Assembly: GCA_963677765.1 (NCBI GenBank)
Contig: OY782392.1
Coordinates: forward strand, 660,001-692,000
Source: Candidatus Saccharimonadota bacterium
GTDB lineage: Bacteria > Patescibacteriota > Gracilibacteria > BD1-5 > UBA6164
Direction: 5' to 3'
Length of the DNA stretch: 32,000 bases
In this document: positions 6,174 through 18,413 of the stretch, piece by piece
How positions within the stretch are numbered: position 1 is the stretch's first letter
How the letters are laid out: each line of letters opens with the position of its first letter
Notes under the pieces: model-generated
The model's input: only the letters and a program-made list of their open reading frames with translations
Told to the model about the DNA's origin: nothing
Databases searched by the model: none
Made by a program: the position numbers and the translations under genes

Positions 6174-8441
6174 ATGAAAAAAACTATTTTGTCTTTGGTT
6201 TTTTTATCTATGTTTTCTTATGCTAATGCTGCAGTTGAAGATAATTCTATAATTGATGCTCTAAAAGATAAAGAAGCTCAGGTTATTAAAACAGACTTTT
6301 GATTAAAAAGTTTTAATAGTTGTCAAGATATGGAGGATGTTATGTCTAGCTATATAAAAGAGTATTGGAAAAATAATAAATGAAACTTTTATCCTCGTTT
6401 TTGAGGTTGAATAATGGTTGATGATATGGTTATGTTTGATGCTGTCGAATCAGTTGCTGATGTTTGATCTATATCAAAACAATCAGTTTCAAATGAGGTT
6501 TATTCAAATACTGATGATTTTTCAAAAACTAATACTCAAGTAGCATGAGTTGATGAATCTGATATAGTTAAAACTGATTGAAAACATATTTATTATTATA
6601 ATTCAAAAGATAAATATGTTTATATAGTTTGAGTTGATGAAAAAGAAGTTCTAAAAAAGATAAAAGTTCCTTCTAGTTTTTGAAACCCTGTTTTATATTT
6701 ATGAGATAATACTCTTACAATATTATCTACTTGATATACTGATTATGATTATTCAACATCTTGATATTGGTTAAATAGAAATAGTAAAACATTTGTTATT
6801 AGTTTTGATGTTAGTGATGTTAAAAAACCAAAAATGGAAAAACTATACATTGCAGATGGTTATTTAGCTAATTCTAGAAAAATAGGTGATTATGTTTATG
6901 TTATTTCAAATAATAGTTTTAATATACCTTATTATACTTTTAAATCAGAAGATGATATAGATTTTGATTTATCTAAATCTTTTCCTAAAAGTATTGATAT
7001 ATCAAAAACTAATGATAAATCTGAATATAATTTAAGATTAAATTGAAAAACTTATCCTTACAATATAAAAGCATGAAATGTTGCTGATTGTAATGATATT
7101 GAATATGTTTTTCCTGATAGTGATACTTTAAGTGAGTATGATTTTAGTCCTAGTTATAATGTAATATCTGTTATTGATGTAAAAAATCCTAATTCAGAAG
7201 TAAAAACTAATGTTGTTATATGAAGTAACAATGAAATCTATATGAGTACTTCTAACTTATATATGACTTCAAATATGTATAAAACTTATGAATTTAGATG
7301 TCCTGTTAATGCTAGATGTTTTGCTCCATGGTATCCAAGAGGTAATAACACAGTAATACATAAACTAAATATTGACTGACAAAAATTAAGTTATCAAGAC
7401 TCTACTATTGTTCCATGATCTCCACTTACTCAATATAGTATGGACGAATATAAATGAAATTTTAGAATTCTTACAAAAATTACAGCTTGGTCAAATCCTG
7501 AATGAGAAGCTTATACTGATTTATATATATTGGATGAAAACTTAGATTTAGAATGAAGTTTAACAAAACTTTGATTATGAGAAGAATTTAAATCTAGTAG
7601 ATATATTTGAGATAAATTATATTTAATAACTTTTGAACAAGTTGATCCATTATTTGTTATAGATGTTGAAAACCCATCTTCTCCAAAAGTATTATGAGAA
7701 TTAAAAATACCATGATATAGTACATATTTACATCCATATGATGAAAATCATCTTATATGAATTTGATATGATACTATGGAAAATAATTGGGGATGAGTTA
7801 TTAATGCATGAGTAAAAGTAGATTTATATGAAATAGATTTTGATAGAGAGGCTGCTTGAGTTTCATCAAATCAAGAAAATAAATGAGATATTTTTATTCA
7901 ACAAAAATTTACAAAAACATTTTGAGAAAGATGAAGTTATAGTGAGGCATTAAATAATCCAAGAATGTTTATGTGGAATTCAGATAAACAAAAATTATTT
8001 TTACCAGCTACTCTTTATAAAAATGCTGAAGATGATATATATAGAAATATTGATTATTTTAATGGTTTATTAACTATAAATATTGATAAAGATAAATGAA
8101 TTTCTGAAGAGTATAGAATTAGTCATATTGATACAAAATGATTAGAAGAAGAAAGAGTTAAAGAATGTAGTAAATATACATGAAATTCATGAGAAAAATG
8201 TCATACTTTATTAGATTGATCAGAATATTGTGAGCCTGTTTCAAGAACTTATGTACCTAAATATTGTTATAAAGACTCTAGTATTTGAGAGTATATAGCA
8301 TCAAAAAATTGGACATTTAGAGATAGTTTTATTAAAAGAGCTTTATGGATTGGTGATAATAGTTATGCTATTTCAGATAATGAAATTTCATCACATAAAA
8401 TCTCTAACTGATCAGTTAATTATAGTGTTGAACTTAAATAA
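6174..8441 (+). CDS. Secreted beta-propeller domain protein (PF09826-like, 755 aa)
   Basis: Signal peptide MKKTILSLVFLSMFSYANA. The motifs TNTQVAGVDESDIVKTDGKHIYYY and RYIGDKLYLITFEQVDPLFVIDVENPSSPKVLGELKIPGYSTYLHPYDENHLIGIGYD match the secreted beta-propeller family. The frame is consistent with track ORF 6834..7046. Confidence 0.75.
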
Positions 8442-8446
8442 TAAAA

Positions 8447-8477
8447 AAAGAAGCAAAAAAAATGCTTCTTTTTTTGT
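8447..8477 (+). terminator. Rho-independent terminator after the beta-propeller gene
   Basis: The stem aaagaagca / tgcttcttt has an A7 loop and is followed by a T-run. Confidence 0.7.
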
Positions 8478-8532
8478 TGTACAAAAAAAATATGTTAAAT
8501 TATTTATATATAATATTAAAAAATAAATTATT

Positions 8533-9876
8533 ATGAATGATTTAATATTTTCATGAGCTTGACTTGCTATAGGTTTAGCTTGATTGTGAATTGCTATATG
8601 ACAAGGTTTTTTGTTTTATAAGGCTATGGATGTAATAGGGAAAAACCCTAGGTCTTCAGGTTTTTTTCTTACTATAACTATTTTATGAATTGCATTAGTA
8701 GAGTCAGCAGGTATTTATGGTTTAATAATAGCTTTTCAAATACTTAGTGCTTCTTTTATTGATCCATTAACAGCTATATGAGTAGGTTCTGCAATATGAT
8801 TGGCATGATTATGAGTTGGTATATGAGAATGAATTCTTGTATGATCAGCTATAGAAGCTATGAATAGAGATACAGAAAATAGGAATAGAATTCTTACATA
8901 TATGATATTGTTTTTAGCATTAGTAGAGTCAGCTGCTATATATGGGTTAATAATAGCTTTTCAATTGTTAACAAAATTAGAACTATCTCCTTATTTGGCT
9001 ATTTGAGCATGATTATCAATTTGACTTACTTGATTATGAGTTGGTATATGAGAGTGAATATTGTCTTGAAAATCTATTTCACTTATGTCACAAAAGCCTA
9101 ATCAAAAATGATATCTTCTTACATCAACTATATTATGAATTGCCTTAGTTGAAACTGCTGCAATATATTGACTTATAATGTCTTTTTCGATTATTGAATC
9201 AGATTTAATTATTCCTATGTCGGCAATATGAGCTGGGTTGGCTGTTTGACTTGCATGATTATGAGTTTGAATAGGTGAGTGATTATTAGTTTCATGAAGT
9301 TATGAATCAATGTTAACTCATAGGGCTAATAAATCTAAGGTTCTTACATATATGATATTATTTTTAGCTTTAGTAGAATCAGCCGCAATATATGGTTTAA
9401 TCATAGGTTTGCAAATTTTATCTAATTGATCAGTAGAATGATTAGCTTCAATTTGAGCATGATTAGCAATTTGATTAGCATGATTATGAGTAGGTATTTG
9501 AGAATGATTTATGTCTTCTAAATCTATTAAAGTAATTTCTAAAAGACCATCTCTTTCAATGTTTTTTCTTACAATAACTATTCTAGCTATTGCATTAGTA
9601 GAATCAGCAGCTATATATTGACTTATAATATCAATGCAAATTTTGTCTACTAATGAAATTTTATGATTTGCTGCTGTTTGAGCATGATTAGCAATTTGAT
9701 TAGCATGATTATGAGCTTGAGTAGGTGAGTGATTTTTGACATGAGCTTCTTTTGATTCTATTGCTAGAAATCCTAAGGTTAAACAAAGAGTTTTAACATA
9801 TATGATATTATGAGTTGCATTAGTAGAATCAGCTGCAATATATGGTTTAATTATAGCATTTACAATATTGTCTTAG
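8533..9876 (+). CDS. atpE: F-type ATP synthase subunit c as a six-hairpin covalent fusion (447 aa, predicted 12 TM helices), paralog 1
   Basis: Hand translation with TGA=Gly gives one ORF with no TAA or TAG. It contains six tandem copies of G-rich helix 1 (GAGLAIGLAGLGVGIGEG), a polar loop, and helix 2 (LALVESAAIYGLIIAF). The Glu codons at 8701, 8926, 9151, 9376, 9601 and 9826 are exactly 225 nt apart. The gene is invisible in the standard code because TGA is dense. Confidence 0.9.
8533..9876 (+). repeat. Intragenic tandem repeat, 6 units of 225 bp (sub-structured as 3 x 450 bp)
   Basis: The block gcattagtaga(a/g)tcagc(a/t)gc(t/a)atatatgg(t/g)tta and its close variants recur with an exact 225-nt period. 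Odd and even units differ systematically. Confidence 0.9.
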
Positions 9877-9982
9877 CTTATTAAAAAAAGTAAAAAAAAT
9901 AAATTTGATTTTTTTTATTTTAAAAATATTATAGACATAAAAAGCTTTATTTTCTTTTCTTAAGAAATAGCTTATTATAGAG

Positions 9983-10026
9983 AAAAAAGCAAGGTAAAAA
10001 AATATTTTTTTACTTGCTTTTTTTTT
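9983..10026 (+). terminator. Terminator-like hairpin with a T9 tail between the first c6 gene and atpB
   Basis: The stem gcaaggtaaaaaaa / tttttttacttgc (one bulged G) is followed by nine Ts. It lies in a 209-bp intergenic gap, whereas other atp genes are 19-64 bp apart. Confidence 0.55.
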
Positions 10027-10085
10027 GTGTTTCAATATACTTCTCGCGTTTTATTTAATTATGTATAATTTTTTAATACAATAAT

Positions 10086-10952
10086 ATGGACACATTAAAT
10101 ACTTTTTTGTCTGCATATGTTATCTCATGATGAGATGGGCATTCCGCATGACTAAATCCTTATTTTATATGAGTTCTAATTGAGCTTGTACTATTTGGGT
10201 TAATATACTTTTTTATAACAAAAAGGCCTAACTCGTCTTTTTCTGTTATGTTTGACATGTTATATGATAAGGTTTATTCATTTTTTGAAGATATTCTTTG
10301 AACAGAAGAAAAAAGATGGACAAAACTATATATTACATCTATGTTTTTTGTAATATTAATATCAAACTTATTAGGTGTTATTTTAGAAATAGCTTGAGTA
10401 TGATTACCATTTTTACATCATGCAGTATCTATACCTACATCTGATATAAACTTTAATGTTGCTATGGCAATAGTATGAGTTTTAATTGTAATTTATGAAC
10501 AATTTAAATTCTTATGATTTTGAAAAGCTATATACGAATACTTGCCAGTTCTTGGTAAAAATTATATACCTTATGAAAAATGAAATTTAAATAAGTTTAT
10601 AGATTTTCCTTTATTCTTATTGGTTAAAGTTTTTGATATTATAATATCAATATTTTTATGATTATTAGAAATAGTAGGTCATTGAGCTAAAATTATTTCG
10701 TTATCATTTAGGTTATTTGGTAATATTACCTCAGGTTGAATGCTTCTTGCTATGTTATTGGCATGAGTAGAATTGCTTACTTGATCTATATCAGGTTTTG
10801 TAACTGGATTGTTTGGTAATTCTATAGAAGTTAACTTCCCAGTATTAATACCTATAATATTACATTTACAATGATTACTAGTAGCTTTAATACAAGCTTT
10901 AGTTTTTCCACTTTTGATAGCTATATTTATTAAGGTTGCAAAAGTGCACTAA
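10086..10952 (+). CDS. atpB: F-type ATP synthase subunit a (288 aa)
   Basis: It contains the essential-Arg motif ISLSFRLFGNITSGG and a C-terminal helix, LHLQGLLVALIQALVFPLLIAIFI. It is a multi-TM protein, and the start/stop frame is consistent. Confidence 0.93.
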
Positions 10953-10990
10953 TTTTTTAAATTTATAAGATATTTTTTAATAATATATAT

Positions 10991-12340
10991 ATGGAAAATT
11001 TGGTTAATTTTATATGAGCTTGACTTGCAATTTGATTAGCTTGAATCTGAGTTGCAATTGGTCAATGAATATTATGAAAAGCTTCAGTTGAAGCTATGTG
11101 AAAAAATAAAGATTTATCTTCTTTTTTCTTAACAATTACAATTCTTGGTATAGCATTAGTAGAATCGGCAGCTATATATGGTTTGATAGTAGCTTTTAAA
11201 ATATTATCTACTACTGATATAACAATTTGAGCTTCAATTTGAGCATGATTAGCTATCTGATTAGCATGATTATGAGCATGAGTATGAGAATGAAAACTTA
11301 TAGCTTGAGCTATAAATGCTATGAGTAAAAATCCAAAATTAAAATCAAAAATAATGACATTTATGGTTTTATTCGTTGCATTAGTAGAATCAGCAGCTAT
11401 ATATGGTTTAGTTATCTCATTTAAAATATTAGGAGATCCTACATTTTCTTCTGAAGCATTTATCGGTATGTGATTAGCTGTATGATTAGCATGATTATGA
11501 GTTTCTATTTGAGAATGAATACTTGCTAATAAAGCTATGGATGTTATGGGTAAACAAGAAAAAATGATTTGATTTTTCTTAACTGTAACAATTCTTGGTA
11601 TAGCATTAGTAGAATCAGCTGCAATATATGGTTTAGTAGTTGCATTTGATATTTTCTCTAAAGATTTATGATTAATGGCTGCTATCTGAGCAGGTACTGC
11701 AATTTGATTTGCATGATTATGAGCATGAATTTGAGAATGAATACTTGTTTCTGGTGCTATGTCATCAATGTCTAGAAATCCAAAAATTAAAGCTAAATTA
11801 ATGACTTTTATGGTATTGTTTATAGCTTTAGTTGAGGTTACAGCAATATATGGTTTAATTATTGCATTTAGAATTTCAGGTTCTTATGATCCATCTATTG
11901 ATCAATTAGTTTATGTATGAGCATGATTAGCTATCTGATTAGCATGATTATGAGTTGGTATCTGAAGATGATATTTATCAGAAGAATCAATGAAAATAAT
12001 GTGAAAAAACCCTTCTATAATTGGTTTTATGTTAACAGTTTCTATATTAGGGGTTGCATTAGTAGAATCAGCTGCAATATATGCATTAGTTGTTTCATTT
12101 AAAATATTAGGTACTGAATGATTAATCTGATTAGCTTCTGCTTGAGCATGATTAGCTATTTGATTAGCATGATTATGAGCATGAGTATGAGAAGGTTTAT
12201 TAATAAAGGGTGCTGTTAAAGGTATAAATATAAATCCAGAACAAAAAGGTAAAACTTTAGCATTTATGGTATTATTTGTTGCTTTAGTTGAAGTAGTCGC
12301 TATTTACTGATTACTAATAGCATTTAGAATAATTGGTTAA
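10991..12340 (+). CDS. atpE: F-type ATP synthase subunit c as a six-hairpin covalent fusion (449 aa), paralog 2
   Basis: I translated every codon by hand with TGA=Gly and found no TAA or TAG. There are six c hairpins with Glu codons at 11162, 11387, 11612, 11834, 12065 and 12290 (spacing 225, 225, 222, 231, 225 nt). By hand count there are roughly 50 in-frame TGA codons against about 24 GGN. Confidence 0.92.
10991..12340 (+). repeat. Intragenic tandem repeat, 6 units of ~225 bp
   Basis: It has the same periodic c-hairpin unit as 8533-9876. The motif gcattagtagaatcagc...atatatggttta recurs. Confidence 0.9.
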
Positions 12341-12369: not shown

Positions 12370-12843
12370 ATGGAAAATTTAAAATTAGAATTGATTATTG
12401 CTGCTATGATCAATTTCTGAATATTGTTTTTTATGTTTAAGCATTTCTTAGGTGAAAAATTAGCAAAAGCTATTGAAGATAGAAGAAAGTTTCTTCAAGC
12501 TTCTGCTGAAGCCGAAGAACAAGCTAAACAAAAACTAGAAGAAGCAGAAAAACAAGTAGAAGAAATATTAAATGAAGCTAGAGCAAAAGCTTCTGATATT
12601 GAAAAATCTGCAGATGAATTATCTAAACAAAATACTGCTAAAGCTTTAGAAAAAGCAGAAAAAGAAGCTGAATATATAATTTCAAGTGCTAGAAGTCAAA
12701 TAGATAAAGAAAAATTAGAAATGGAAAATTCTATGAGATCAAAAATTTTGGATTTATCTTTAAGATTAACTTCTAAAATATTCTCTAAAGAAACTGCTAA
12801 TAAAGACTTTTTAGAAAAAGAATTAAATGTATTAACTAAATAA
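12370..12843 (+). CDS. atpF: F-type ATP synthase subunit b (157 aa)
   Basis: An N-terminal TM helix (LELIIAAMINFGILFFMF) is followed by a long charged coiled coil (RRKFLQASAEAEEQAKQKLEEAEKQ...). The gene sits in the canonical position between c and delta. Confidence 0.88.
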
Positions 12844-12850
12844 TTATTAT

Positions 12851-13210
12851 ATGAGTGATATAAAAAACTCTATTAATAATCTTGATTTAAATCAATTAAA
12901 ACAACTTTTATCTGAATTAAAATTGTACAAAGATTTAAACAAGCAATTATGAAATAGATGAAAAGATTTGTATAATAGATTAAAAACTTGAGAAAGAACT
13001 TATTTAGTTGAATATTTTCCAGTTATTTCAGAAGATTTAGCTTATGAAATATCTTCTAAAGTTTATAAACAAGTTTTTAATTCAGAGATACAAAGAGATA
13101 ATATAAAGTTTTTACCTAAAGATACTATTTTAGGTTGAGTAAAAGTTTATGTTGATGACAAAGTTGTTGACTTAAGCTACCAAAAAATCGAAAAAATGAT
13201 TACAAAATAA
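12851..13210 (+). CDS. atpH: F-type ATP synthase subunit delta (OSCP), unusually short at 119 aa
   Basis: It lies between atpF and atpA. The C-terminal KDTILGGVKVYVDDKVVDLSYQKIEKM resembles the OSCP C-terminal GG-x-V-x-VGD-x-V-x-D-x-S motif. The N-terminal part is much shorter than the usual ~180-aa delta. Confidence 0.6.
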
Positions 13211-13253
13211 TTTTTTATAAAAATTTTAATTTATTACTATTAAATTTATAACT

Positions 13254-14759
13254 ATGTCAAACGACTTATTAAATAATATTATAAATGAAATAGAAAACAA
13301 AATAGATTCTGTTGAAGTTAATCCAGAAGTATGAAATGTTGGGGAAGTTTTCTATTTATGAGATGGTGTTGCTAAAGTTTCTGGTTTATGAAACTTATCT
13401 TACAATGAAGTAGTTGATTTTGAATCAGGAGCTAGAGGTTTAGCTTTAAATCTTGAAGAACACTTTGTATGAGTTGTTATCCTTTCTGGTTTTAGTAAAA
13501 TTAAAGAAGGTGAAAAAGCTTTCTCTACAGGTAAAACTTTAGAGGTGCCAGTAGGTCAAGGTTTAGTTGGTAGGGTTGTTGACCCATTAGGTAATCCAAT
13601 TGATGGTTTATGAGAAATCAAAGCTACTGAATATTACCCAGTTGAAAGAGTTGCTACAGGTGTTATGTCAAGAAAATCTGTACATGAACCAATGTCTACA
13701 GGTATCAAAGCTATTGATGCATTAGTACCAATTGGTAGAGGGCAAAGAGAATTAATTATTGGTGATAGACAAACTGGTAAAACTCAAGTTGCTATAGATG
13801 CAATATTAAATCAAAAAGGACAATGAGTTACTTGTGTATATGTAGCTATTGGTCAAAAAGAAGGTAAAATTGCTAGAATAGTTGAAGAATTAAAGAAAAG
13901 AGGAGCAATGGATTATACTATTGTTGTTGCTGCTGGAGCATCTACTCCTGCTGCAATGCAATATTTAGCTCCATATGCTGGTTGTGCTATGGCTGAATAT
14001 TTTATGTTCAATAGTGCTCACTCATTAATTATATATGATGATTTAACTAAACAAGCTAATGCTTATAGAGAAATGTCATTATTATTAAGAAGACCACCAG
14101 GTAGAGAAGCTTATCCATGAGATGTTTTTTACGTTCACTCAAGATTATTAGAAAGAGCTTCAAAATTAAATGATGAATTAGGTGCTGGTTCAATGACAGC
14201 ATTACCTATTATTGAAACTCAAGCAGGTGATGTTTCTGCTTATATACCTACGAATGTAATTTCTATTACTGATGGGCAAATTTTCTTAGAATCAAACTTA
14301 TTTAATGCAGGTCAAAAACCAGCAATTAATGTATGATTATCAGTATCGAGAGTTTGAGGTGCTGCTCAAATTAAAGGTATGAAAAAAGTATCAGGTACTT
14401 TAAAATTAGACTTAGCTCAATATAGAGAATTAGCTGCATTTTCACAATTCGCTTCTGATTTAGATGCTGATACAAAAGCACAATTAGACAGATGAGCAAG
14501 AATGATGGAATTATTAAAACAAGGTGTTTATTCTCCAGTTACTGTTGAAAAACAAATTTGTTCTATATATGCAGGTGCTAAAGGTTATTTAGATCAAATT
14601 GAAACTTCTAAAGTTACTAAATTTGAATTAGATTTATATACTTCTTTAGAAGATGAAAAATCTATTTTAGAATCTATTTCAAAAGAAAAAGTATTAAACG
14701 ACGAATCAGAAGCTAAACTTAAAACAGTTATCGAAAAAGTTGTAGAAATATATAAATAA
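13254..14759 (+). CDS. atpA: F-type ATP synthase subunit alpha (501 aa)
   Basis: P-loop [31 protein letters not shown], and [32 protein letters not shown]. The gene joins track ORFs 13908..14120 and 14502..14759 in a single frame. Confidence 0.98.
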
Positions 14760-14786
14760 TTTACATCCAGTTAATTTAAAAATTTT

Positions 14787-15701
14787 ATGGCAAATGCTAA
14801 AGAAATAAAAAGAAAAATTGGGTCGATAAAAAATACTTGAAAAATTACTAAGGCTATGGAGCTTATTTCAACTGTAAAGATGAAAAAAGCTCAAAACTTA
14901 GCAATGGAAAAAAGAAACTTTGTTTTAGAAATGTTAAAAATATTTCTAAGAGTAGAAGATTACTTATCTGAGTTTCCATTGTTTTGAGAAAATTCAAATT
15001 GAACAAAAACATTGGCTGTTGTTGTTACTTCTAATAAATGATTATGTTGAGGTTATAACGTTAATGTTATGAAAAAAGTTAATTCATATATAAAAGAAAC
15101 AGGAGAAGATTTAGATTTTGTTTCTATATGAAAAAAAGCTTCAAATTTTGTTGCAAAAACTTGAAATAATCTTATAGCTGACTTTAGTGATGATTTCACA
15201 GATAATTTAGATCCAGTTTTTACAAAAAAAATATCTGAGTTATTAAGAGAAGAGTTTCTTACTTGAAAATATAATAAAGTAGTTGTTTTTTATAATTTTT
15301 ATGTAAATACAATTAAACAAATTCCAGTTGCGAAAACTTCTTTTCCAATAGATTCAGATGATATTAAAAAATATTTATTTTCTGTTTTAGAAGATCATTT
15401 TGATATTGAATCAGAAATTAAGGAAATGGAAAATACATATTCGTATGATATTGAGCCATCACCTGAAGAATTAGTTAATGATGTTATGCCAATTATTTTG
15501 GATATGATGTTCTTTGATACTTTACTTAATGCTAAAGCTTCTGAACATAGTGCAAGAATGATTGCTATGAAAAATGCAAAAGACTCAGCTAATAAAATAG
15601 CTTGAGCTTTAACTCTAAAATATAACAAAGCAAGACAAGCTAGTATTACTAGTGAAGTTTCTGAAATTACAGCATGAGTTGAATCAATGAAGGATGCTTA
15701 A
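14787..15701 (+). CDS. atpG: F-type ATP synthase subunit gamma (304 aa)
   Basis: The N-terminus is [36 protein letters not shown]. The C-terminus is [44 protein letters not shown]. The full hand translation has no TAA or TAG. Confidence 0.95.
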
Positions 15702-15764
15702 AACAACCTTTACACTTGTTTAAAAAAGATTATAATAAATTTATTATAAAATAATTATGTTATT

Positions 15765-16133
15765 ATGAAATTATTATTTATTGTTCTAAGAGTTCTTATA
15801 AACTTAATTCTAGCATCTTTTTATGTTTTGATATCAATAATTTTTTGAAACTTTATATATTGATTAATTTTATCTATTTTAGGTAAACAAGTTCCAGGAC
15901 CACAAGACCCTATTCATTTTAAATTAGCAATTTTAGCTATATTCTTATCTCTTATATTTTCTTTACTTTTTAGAAAGTATTTGTATTTAAGTGTTATTTC
16001 TTTATTTAGAGATTTTGTTTTAAAAATTGAAAAAAAAGAAAAAAAAATAAATTCTAATAATGAAGGAACTATTAATAAAGATTCATCTTTAGAAGATGAA
16101 TTAGAAATATATGTAAACAAAGAAATAAAATAA
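15765..16133 (+). CDS. Small membrane protein of unknown function, embedded in the atp operon (122 aa)
   Basis: Uninterrupted ORF under table 25. It has 2-3 hydrophobic helices (LLFIVLRVLINLILASFYVLISIIF, FKLAILAIFLSLIFSLLF) and then a Lys/Glu-rich tail. I recognised no family. An AtpI-like assembly role is speculation. Confidence 0.55.
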
Positions 16134-16135
16134 TT

Positions 16136-16537
16136 ATGATATTAAATGTATATACTGACTGATGATCTAGATGAAATCCATGAAAGGCTTGATTATGAGT
16201 TTATATCACGGATAGCAAATGATTGGAAGTTGAAAAAAGGTATAAAAGTTTATGAATCAAGACAAATAATGAAGCAGAATATTTATGAGCTTATTATTGA
16301 ATAAAAAGAGCAATAGAGCTATGATGAAATGAAATTAATCTTTTTATGGATTCAAAATTAGTAATAGAACAATTATTATGAAATTGGAAAATTAAAAAAG
16401 ATGAACTTAGAGTAATAAATAATGATATTAATCAACTTGTTAAACAAAACAATACAAAAGTAAACTATACTTGGATTGCAAGAGAAAAAAATAAAGAAGC
16501 CGATAGGCTTAGTAATGTTGCAATGGATTTAGATTAA
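16136..16537 (+). CDS. rnhA: RNase H type 1 domain protein (133 aa)
   Basis: MILNVYTDGGSRGNPGKAGLGVYI...NNEAEYLGAYYGIKRAIELG...FMDSKLVIEQL...KEADRLSNVAMD carries the DEDD catalytic pattern of RNase HI. It starts 2 nt after the preceding stop. Confidence 0.85.
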
Positions 16538-16561
16538 TTTACAATTAAAATTATATACAAA

Positions 16562-17962
<1,401 letters not shown>

Positions 17963-17981
17963 TTTTTTAAAAATAAATTTT

Positions 17982-18413
17982 ATGAAACTAAAAATATTTT
18001 CTTTTTCATGAGAAAGCTTTAGTTCTGACAATGTTGTTTCTGCAACTTTGATGACTTCAATTTGAGAAATTACTCTATTAGATAATCATGCTCCTTTATT
18101 AACAAGTATAAAACCATCTACTATGTATGTTATATATACTGATGATAAATGAGTTGAAAAAAGAGATGATTTCGCAATTTGAAAATGAGTTGTTGAAGTT
18201 AGTGCTAACAATGTAAAAGTTATGGCTGATATGCTTGTAGATATCGATGATCTTGATACTGAAGCTGCAGAAAGAGCTAGAGAACAAGCTGTTAAACTTA
18301 TGGAAAAATATAGAGATTCAAAAGATAAAATGGACATGGAAAAATTTGTTGAAGCTGAGGATATGTTATTAAAATCAATAGCTCAATTAAAATTAAATGA
18401 TACATTAAAATAA
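17982..18413 (+). CDS. atpC: F-type ATP synthase subunit epsilon (143 aa)
   Basis: It follows atpD. An N-terminal beta-sandwich region (GEITLLDNHAPLLTSIKP) is followed by a C-terminal helical hairpin (EAAERAREQAVKLMEKY). It is in frame with track ORF 18222..18413. Confidence 0.9.

Follow-up and report, generated by a model that had tools for sequence, protein, structure and literature searches.

The ion-to-ATP ratio of a rotary ATPase is normally set by the number of identical c subunits in its rotor ring, and what fixes this number has long been debated. Natural rings comprise 8-17 hairpins, and fused rotor subunits as such are already known: c1 of Acetobacterium woodii, the V-type proteolipids and the archaeal K subunits with up to 13 hairpins. 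Here we describe c2, a gene that encodes an F-type subunit c of six fused hairpins and lies between atpB and atpF in a 32,000-nucleotide stretch of bacterial DNA (positions 660,001 to 692,000 of contig OY782392.1), referred to as the window in its full length. A six-hairpin paralog, c1, is located upstream of atpB. In the full-text literature, with most subscription journals lying outside that search, we found neither a multi-hairpin F-type subunit c described for code-25 bacteria of the Gracilibacteria/Absconditabacteria type, to which the window belongs, nor an Arg described within an ion site of a c-ring.

The A. woodii ring is mixed and contains one subunit with reduced sites. This subunit, A. 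woodii c1 (4BEM chain J), has two hairpins, one of which has lost its carboxylate (Glu to Gln), and it forms a ring with nine single-hairpin c2/c3 subunits. It shares with the c2 described here that a rotor subunit from an F-type operon consists of fused hairpins and has, in our case presumably, fewer ion sites than hairpins. In contrast to A. woodii c1, c2 has six hairpins and has kept every Glu, an Arg having been added together with a Ser to Val exchange on the neighbouring hairpin. The V- and A-type proteolipids (NtpK of Enterococcus hirae, yeast Vo c, archaeal K) are also multi-hairpin proteins, and in NtpK the preceding hairpin donates ligands. V-type subunits reduce their number of sites by loss of Glu, whereas the lineage of c2 would do so by an added Arg, and within an F-type operon. 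Normal and altered sites alternate, as in V-type subunits, in those relatives of c2 whose helix-1 residues read QERE or QERERE over successive hairpins. Archaeal K subunits have 2, 3 or 13 hairpins, as for example in Methanopyrus kandleri. The M. kandleri type, with the whole ring in one chain, does not apply to c2, as six hairpins require at least two chains, whereas relatives of c2 with 8, 10 or 12 hairpins could be such whole-ring chains. The c11 ring of Fusobacterium nucleatum (3ZK1) shares with the ordinary pockets of c2 the helix-1 Glu, the helix-2 Glu, a Ser at Glu+1 and a Tyr at Glu+5. There the subunit consists of just one hairpin, the eleven sites are all identical and Thr67 is present, whereas c2 has Ala at the latter position and three kinds of pocket. 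Finally, the engineered single-chain c10 of Bacillus PS3 is active with ten fused hairpins, which can be altered individually (E56D slows the enzyme). That protein is artificial, with GSAG linkers and identical hairpins, whereas the family of c2 is natural, with diverged hairpins and an odd/even unit.

All translations were made with genetic code 25 (TGA = Gly), table 11 being unsuitable here. In the window (24.5% G+C), DnaK, the ATP synthase subunits alpha and beta and other proteins are full-length only under code 25, and the N-terminus of DnaK is intelligible only when TGA is read as Gly. At 10991-12340, the longest open reading frame (ORF) under table 11 has just 61 aa, whereas table 25 gives a single ORF from ATG at 10991 to TAA at 12338-12340. 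The 449 codons that an earlier reading made from the sequence alone (the sequence-only reading) had counted here are therefore upheld under table 25. Gly is encoded by 51 TGA codons (about 11% of all codons) and 22 GGN codons, and TGG does not occur.

Pfam finds six PF00137 stretches in c2 (E 2.4e-84, 278 bits against a cut-off of 24), in agreement with the six hairpins that had been claimed. NCBIfam models of F0F1 subunit C exceed their cut-offs on each hairpin. The V-type K model NF011483 is also above its cut-off on hairpin pairs, and the F-type c models outscore the others per hairpin. Other features reported from the sequence were recovered as well, namely the Glu codons at 11162, 11387, 11612, 11834, 12065 and 12290, the linkers GDPTFSSEAFIGM and GSYDPSIDQLVYV, and the status of c2 as a diverged paralog of c1 and not an identical copy of it (57.8% identity). 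Two types of hairpin, odd (GKNP..FFLTITILGIALVES) and even (RNPK.K.K.MTFMVLF.ALVES), follow each other in alternation, which indicates a repeat unit of two hairpins, present in three copies.

The helix-1 residues of c2 are Q, E, E, E, R and E in hairpin order. The single Arg (Arg326 in GIGRG of hairpin 5), where the remaining hairpins have Gln or Glu, and the Val following the helix-2 Glu in hairpins 4 (ALVEVTAIY, Val283-Thr284) and 6 (ALVEVVAIY, Val435-Val436) had all been read correctly. In the rings of Ilyobacter tartaricus and F. nucleatum, one subunit binds Na+ through Gln/Glu32 and Glu65, while the adjacent subunit contributes the O-gamma of Ser66 and the carbonyl of Val63; Tyr70 and a water bound to Thr67 assist. 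In the fused NtpK of E. hirae, Gln110 and Glu139 (helices 3 and 4) act together with Thr64 and Leu61 of helix 2, so the equivalent of Ser66 is supplied by the preceding hairpin. As in this geometry the Glu+1 residue of hairpin n-1 completes site n, Val283/Thr284 and Arg326 should belong to the same pocket. By analogy, we infer that Val283/Thr284 of hairpin 4 line the hairpin-5 pocket with Arg326 and Glu359, and that Val435/Val436 of hairpin 6 face the Gln-type hairpin 1 of the polypeptide that follows in the ring. The altered residues in hairpins 4, 5 and 6 thus stand as they had been described; they would not make three separate sites, as that description implied, but one remodelled 4/5 pocket and one junction pocket.

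Helix-1 Glu is present in hairpins 2, 3, 4 and 6, which form the ordinary pockets of c2, whereas hairpin 1 has Gln and hairpin 5 Arg. Ser occupies Glu+1 in four of six hairpins, and Tyr is found at Glu+5 in all six. Judged from these residues, four hairpins appear to carry a two-carboxylate pocket consisting of helix-1 Glu, helix-2 Glu and Tyr, with a Ser from the preceding hairpin. Three kinds of pocket are thus mixed in c2, in line with the proposal of the sequence-only reading that the sites are not all equivalent. None of the Ser hairpins of c2 has a Thr at Glu+2, the position of the water-binding Thr67, which is always Ala, and the F. nucleatum-type Na+ motif (Ser66, Thr67, Tyr) as a whole is not matched.

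The best sequence match of c2 in the PDB was A. woodii c1 (4BEM_J, E 1.4e-13), followed by ordinary F-type c subunits, including those of the Na+ rings of F. nucleatum and I. tartaricus; E. hirae NtpK matched much more weakly. An AlphaFold2 model was obtained for a Gly-coded ortholog (P0008), which is 76% identical to c2 and shares its QEEERE / EVT..EVV pattern. The model (predicted local distance difference test, pLDDT, 92.3; predicted template modelling score, pTM, 0.92) contains 12 helices in six hairpins, and a Foldseek search with it gave 4BEM_J as top match. Adjacent hairpins of the model superpose on two-hairpin V-type proteolipids, NtpK (2BL2) included, at about 2-2.6 Å. Therefore, hairpins that are neighbours in the chain are predicted to lie against each other like those of real rings.

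Covariation was analysed in 134 distinct proteins of the family, with the helix-1 residue of hairpin n compared to the Glu+1 residue of hairpin n-1. Wherever helix 1 has Glu, the preceding hairpin carries Ser or Thr (465/465), and wherever it has Arg, the preceding hairpin carries Val (96/96); Gln occurs with a mixture of residues. Mutual information amounts to 0.64 bits in this register, compared to 0.17 within the same hairpin and 0.25 with the following one, which supports the preceding-hairpin register over the other two. In the hairpins preceding Arg hairpins, Ser-Ala at Glu+1 and Glu+2 is replaced by Val-Thr (Glu-Val-Thr in 95 cases, Glu-Val-Ser in one), and the Arg hairpins themselves are distinguished by Tyr at Arg+2 and by the replacement of Gly with Ala (Glu+6), Ile with Val (Glu-4) and Thr with Ser (Glu-8). 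The four helix-1 Lys variants come after Glu-Ala-x hairpins. A corresponding rule is seen at the chain junction: all seven proteins with a Glu-type first hairpin end in a Glu-Ser hairpin, and proteins starting with Gln, which is the first helix-1 residue in nearly all family members, mostly end in Glu-Val-Val/Leu/Ile. The helix-2 Glu is kept in 773 of 773 family hairpins and the Tyr in 766. The sequence-only reading had compared c2 to A. woodii c1, and the comparison would hold for function, but not for the loss of a carboxylate. The Arg and Glu-Val variants of c2 are kept in its code-25 orthologs.

We did not take the 96/96 at face value. In a neighbour-joining tree of 310 distinct even-to-odd hairpin-pair units (focal columns excluded, 618 branches), parsimony shows only about five switches of the Ser/Val state, compared to 25 of the helix-1 state, and the coupling was therefore retained at lower weight. 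Three of the five Ser/Val switches share a branch with a helix-1 change, against an expectation of about 0.2. With Val as context, helix 1 varies among Arg, Gln and Ile and is never Glu; with Ser as context, it is never Arg. Three six-hairpin proteins (P0049, P0061, P0098) have a helix-1 Lys in their last hairpin, preceded by Glu-Ala-Ser, and a Glu in the first hairpin; judged from these sequences, the Lys lineage may represent a second, independent basic-residue solution.

A search over 5.8 billion proteins returned 300 relatives. Those with a named source all belong to Candidatus Gracilibacteria or Vampirococcus lugosii, and their lengths correspond to 4, 6, 7, 8 and 10 hairpins. Among 1.84 billion representatives, just 16 clusters were found at E <= 1e-30, one of them a 13-hairpin member of 968 aa. 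Most public predictions carry Trp at TGA positions (code 4 calls), which lowers the apparent identity: a protein on contig L001 (P0004) is 88% identical to c2 as deposited, and its gene about 99% when TGA is read as Gly. Motif searches for the Gly-rich helix 1 would fail on such entries. Database entries were therefore normalised from Trp to Gly, and hairpins were extracted by hidden Markov model. Locus contexts came from 12 look-ups and scans and from 75 metagenome loci recovered by a scan with the alignment; a scan of genome contigs with c2 alone gave five loci, the query peptides being loops specific to close relatives. In-frame TGA occurs in alpha and beta of all loci, two-hairpin relatives included, so the family belongs to the code-25 lineage. 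Unrelated multi-hairpin rotor families exist outside this lineage.

Where a gene is present between atpB and atpF, it is always c2-like, with 2, 4, 6, 8, 10 or 12 hairpins that are 63-87% identical to those of the window's c2 and about 60% to those of c1. An upstream c gene was found in only 6 of the 16 distinct architectures with enough flanking sequence (one of the six being an extra a-c-b cluster, L015) and is missing in the other 10. Therefore, c2 is the canonical atpE, and c1 a sporadic accessory paralog of a lineage distinct from c2. The sequence-only reading had presented c2 as the second gene, which is reversed in the evolutionary sense, as c2 fills the ancestral atpE slot. Upstream and downstream hairpins combine as 6+6 (the window and L017), 4+4, 12+6 and 7+0; architectures with a c2-type gene alone are 0+4, 0+6, 0+8, 0+10 and 0+12, and there are two-hairpin relatives too. 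The sum per genome ranges from 2 to 18, and no single-hairpin c gene was present at any locus examined.

Hairpin 1 of c2 resembles the first hairpin of the 8-, 10- and 12-hairpin genes, and hairpins 4-6 resemble their last three; hairpin 5 is 96% identical to hairpin 7 of an 8-hairpin ortholog (L008). By this comparison, the longer genes have amplified the middle unit. Two ideas about the architectures were discarded. The window's two c genes are not a split version of the 12-hairpin gene of L006, as all 12 hairpins of the latter are c2-like, its first hairpin corresponding to c2 hairpin 1 and its last three to c2 hairpins 4-6, whereas c1 is about equally distant (about 45-70% identity) from all of them. 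Nor do the summed hairpins give the ring size: 6+6, 4+4, 10 and 12 would fit, but 0+4, 0+6, 7+0, the two-hairpin genes and 12+6 refute it.

We consider it most probable, at roughly 0.6, that c2 is a working F-type rotor polyprotein with one charge-compensated, ion-free pocket. Its single chain would place six helical hairpins in six neighbouring positions of the membrane ring. In the pocket between hairpins 4 and 5, Arg326 would take the place of the helix-1 Glu and Val283-Thr284 that of Ser-Ala, with Glu359 kept. Arg326 would then most likely pair with Glu359 as a tethered cation, and the site would need neither Na+ nor H+ to be neutral in the lipid. On passing Arg209 of subunit a it would exchange no ion, giving one blank step per c2 chain. 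The proposal of the sequence-only reading that the Arg neutralises the Glu fits all evidence gathered, with the contact itself as its inferred part. A basic residue is found in the Na+ site of LeuT-fold transporters (Lys158 of ApcT, Arg262 of CaiT), where likewise a tethered positive charge substitutes for a bound cation; this unrelated family offers a mechanistic analogy only. The Val-Val of the C-terminal hairpin and the Gln-type hairpin 1 of the chain that follows, be it c1 or c2, would form a second odd pocket. The ring would thus have programmed non-equivalent sites and transport fewer ions per ATP than it has hairpins. One 12-hairpin ring of c1 and c2 would contain nine two-carboxylate pockets and one each of the Gln/Ser, Gln/Val and Arg/Val kinds, and have no more than 11 carriers per turn; for a ring of two c2 chains, the maximum would be 10.

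Several points weigh against this reading. The passage of a buried Arg along the stator Arg might not be silent but impede rotation. The replacement of Thr67 by Ala bears on Na+ versus H+ coupling, and the authors of the Vampirococcus genome, whose only remark on subunit c is that its Na+ motif is unlike typical ones, judged this motif as non-Na+ and leaned to H+. Further, the 96/96 is inflated by descent, as the Arg/Val unit had only one origin or very few, and unit duplication then spread it. Because Gln, Ile, His or Met replaces Arg beside Val in some orthologs, Arg is not strictly required; the loss of Glu and Ser may be primary and Arg one of several solutions.

More generally, we tentatively propose, at slightly less than an even chance, that code-25 bacteria assemble their F-type ring from polyproteins of 2-13 hairpins, a single one or a few, with genetically fixed positions, in which a tethered Arg and the Ser to Val exchange of the neighbour create ion-free steps, a new way of gearing by which sequence, and not ring size alone, sets the ion-to-ATP ratio. 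Every second pocket is altered and all carboxylates are kept in the QERE and QERERE lineages, in imitation of V-type gearing; ion-free steps would there reach every second site with no carboxylate deleted. According to the Vampirococcus genome paper, code-25 bacteria appear to have no respiratory chain, so a lower ion-to-ATP ratio would suit an ATP-driven pump. The question thus bears on how non-respiring, host-dependent bacteria use their ATPase, as fewer ions per ATP favour a pump that builds up membrane potential. A natural F-type family with hairpins strung covalently in 2, 4, 6, 7, 8, 10, 12 or 13 and with individually specialised sites (two-carboxylate, Gln/Ser, Gln/Val and Arg/Val) is of clear interest for the rotary-ATPase field. 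It would offer a system for the effects of non-equivalent sites on rotation and for the assembly of rings of fixed size, and would show whether a tethered Arg can replace the coupling ion.

It is extremely improbable that c2 is a duplicate in decay, a copy without expression or an artefact of repeat assembly, with mere noise in its Arg and Val codons. Nothing but its internal repetitiveness speaks for this. The same c1-a-c2-b-... locus, identical in architecture, is present in an independent metagenome assembly (L001/L013), and sequence errors, which the sequence-only reading had considered, are thereby excluded. The c2 genes of the window and L001 differ at 24 nt, of which 20 are synonymous and four non-synonymous (ratio of non-synonymous to synonymous rates, dN/dS, 0.054; 0.036 for c1 and 0.095 for subunit a). 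A repeat-assembly artefact is also unlikely because the DNA of the hairpin repeats has diverged considerably: exact words common to hairpins of these c genes reach 37-39 nt at most, with none above 37 nt in c2. The same residues recur in about 100 orthologs, down to about 55% identity, and the canonical operon slot holds c2 as its sole c gene. As far as sequence evidence reaches, decay or artefact is refuted. Alternatively, the Arg/Val pocket could be a structural or assembly keystone with a secondary or absent effect on ion count, for example an asymmetric mark near the C-terminus that sets the register between chains, or a contact to subunit a or the central stalk; we regard this as unlikely. 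The Arg does lie in the penultimate hairpin of the atpB-proximal gene regardless of whether it has 4, 6, 8, 10 or 12 hairpins, and never occurs in upstream c1-type genes. The Arg neighbours the terminal Val-Val hairpin, which is just as conserved, and the first hairpin with its Gln, which places the two odd sites on either side of the chain junction; two-hairpin relatives lack Arg as well as Val-Val. However, a second Arg/Val pocket occurs in some lineages well away from the junction (hairpin 3 of 6, hairpin 7 of 12), the changed residues are the ion-ligand positions of solved rings and lie neither on the surface nor in loops, and several orthologs without any Arg (L003, L004, L041) have an unchanged architecture.

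That c1 and c2 form separate rings, for instance of two six-hairpin chains each, as condition-dependent isoforms differing in gearing or ion preference, is a real possibility, if on balance a doubtful one. Because c1 is flanked by terminator-like hairpins, it appears to be its own transcription unit, and c2 is situated inside the operon. Many relatives manage with a c2-type gene alone and one lineage with the upstream type only (7+0). Additionally, the 12+6 combination amounts to 18 hairpins, above any known ring, and the TGA/GGN usage of the 12-hairpin gene in that relative (L014) differs greatly from that of its operon, which suggests separate acquisition. On the other hand, matched sizes (4+4 and 6+6) recur, mixed rings exist in A. 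woodii, and both c1 and c2 are under strong purifying selection. The junction rule fits either arrangement, as Gln-type first hairpins take Ser or Val from the preceding chain. All 12 sites of c1 and c2 could also share one ring.

Features of the c2 locus (columns: feature; positions in the window; strand; remarks)
c2, six-hairpin F-type subunit c in atpE position	10991..12340	+	449 aa, code 25, stop TAA
c2 hairpin 1 (aa 5-73)	11003..11209	+	helix-1 Gln25 (11063-11065), Glu58-Ser59
c2 hairpin 2 (aa 77-148)	11219..11434	+	helix-1 Glu100, Glu133-Ser134; two-carboxylate type
c2 hairpin 3 (aa 152-223)	11444..11659	+	helix-1 Glu175, Glu208-Ser209
c2 hairpin 4 (aa 226-297)	11666..11881	+	helix-1 Glu249, Glu282-Val283-Thr284; Val283/Thr284 codons 11837-11842 (Val283 11837-11839)
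c2 hairpin 5 (aa 302-374)	11894..12112	+	Arg326 (AGA 11966-11968), Tyr328, Glu359 (12065-12067), Ala365
c2 hairpin 6 (aa 378-449)	12122..12337	+	helix-1 Glu401, Glu434-Val435-Val436 (12290-12298; Val435 12293-12295)
beta-propeller gene (PF09826)	6174..8441
terminator-like hairpin between beta-propeller gene and c1	8443..8475		
c1, six-hairpin paralog	8533..9876	+	447 aa; six PF00137; helix-1 QEEEEE; Ser/Thr after every Glu; no Arg
terminator-like hairpin and T-run after c1	9980..10026	+	-17.7 kcal/mol, z -4.7
atpB (subunit a, PF00119)	10086..10952	+	stator Arg209 in SFRLFGN, codon at 10710
subunit b (PF00430)	12370..12843	+	F-type operon
short delta	12851..13210	+	weak OSCP match
alpha	13254..14759	+	F-type operon
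gamma (PF00231 in orthologs)	14787..15701	+	F-type operon
small membrane ORF	15765..16133	+	inside ATP synthase operon
RNase H-like gene	16136..16537	+	inside ATP synthase operon
beta	16562..17962	+	F-type operon
epsilon (PF02823)	17982..18413	+	F-type operon

In the window, c2 begins 38 nt past the stop codon of atpB and ends 29 nt ahead of atpF. Together with subunit a and c2, the genes at 12370..18413 (+) make up a complete F-type set in the order a-c2-b-delta-alpha-gamma-beta-epsilon. Between atpG and atpD (15765-16537), the operon contains a predicted membrane ORF of 122 aa without a Pfam match and an RNase H-like gene of 133 aa (PF13456/PF00075). The RNase H-like insertion is kept in several relatives (also L001, L009 and L010). 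The delta/OSCP subunit has 119 aa, and only the C-terminal part of PF00213 matched it, below the cut-off (E 0.005); a Pfam search of its orthologs gave zero matches. Given the short delta, the peripheral stalk may be unusual. Upstream, the locus adjoins a gene for a secreted beta-propeller protein of about 760 aa (PF09826) in most relatives (L002-L006, L010, L012, L014, L017 and L041), and the accessory c1, where it occurs, sits between this gene and atpB.

Further unusual c genes were seen at related loci. L014 carries an upstream c gene of 12 hairpins (6268-9018) in addition to a six-hairpin c2 (9986-11401). The upstream gene encodes Gly by 82 TGA and 55 GGN codons, whereas TGA is nearly absent from c2 and the remainder of the operon (4 vs 67); this codon usage suggests that the upstream gene was acquired from another code-25 lineage. 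L015 (295-2126) and L031 (5557-7388) have a partial second Fo module, separated by about 1.7 kb from the full a-c6-b-... operon downstream; it comprises a, a c of two hairpins (both with Gln in helix 1) and b. The seven-hairpin lineage (P0116, P0050; L009, L061, L062, L065, L068) has the order c-a-b with no c gene between a and b, and its helix-1 positions are degenerate (QEEGAEL, QEMLEGA); seven hairpins alone cannot form a ring of known size. Multi-hairpin rotor subunits without TGA recoding comprise P0126, P0128, P0131, P0145, P0160 and about 100 proteins of about 320 aa. Among these non-recoded proteins are examples with 14 hairpins of the type Ile/Glu-Ala-Leu, with 10-12 hairpins of the type Gln/Glu-Thr-Gln, and proteins of four hairpins in which just one or two Glu are left.

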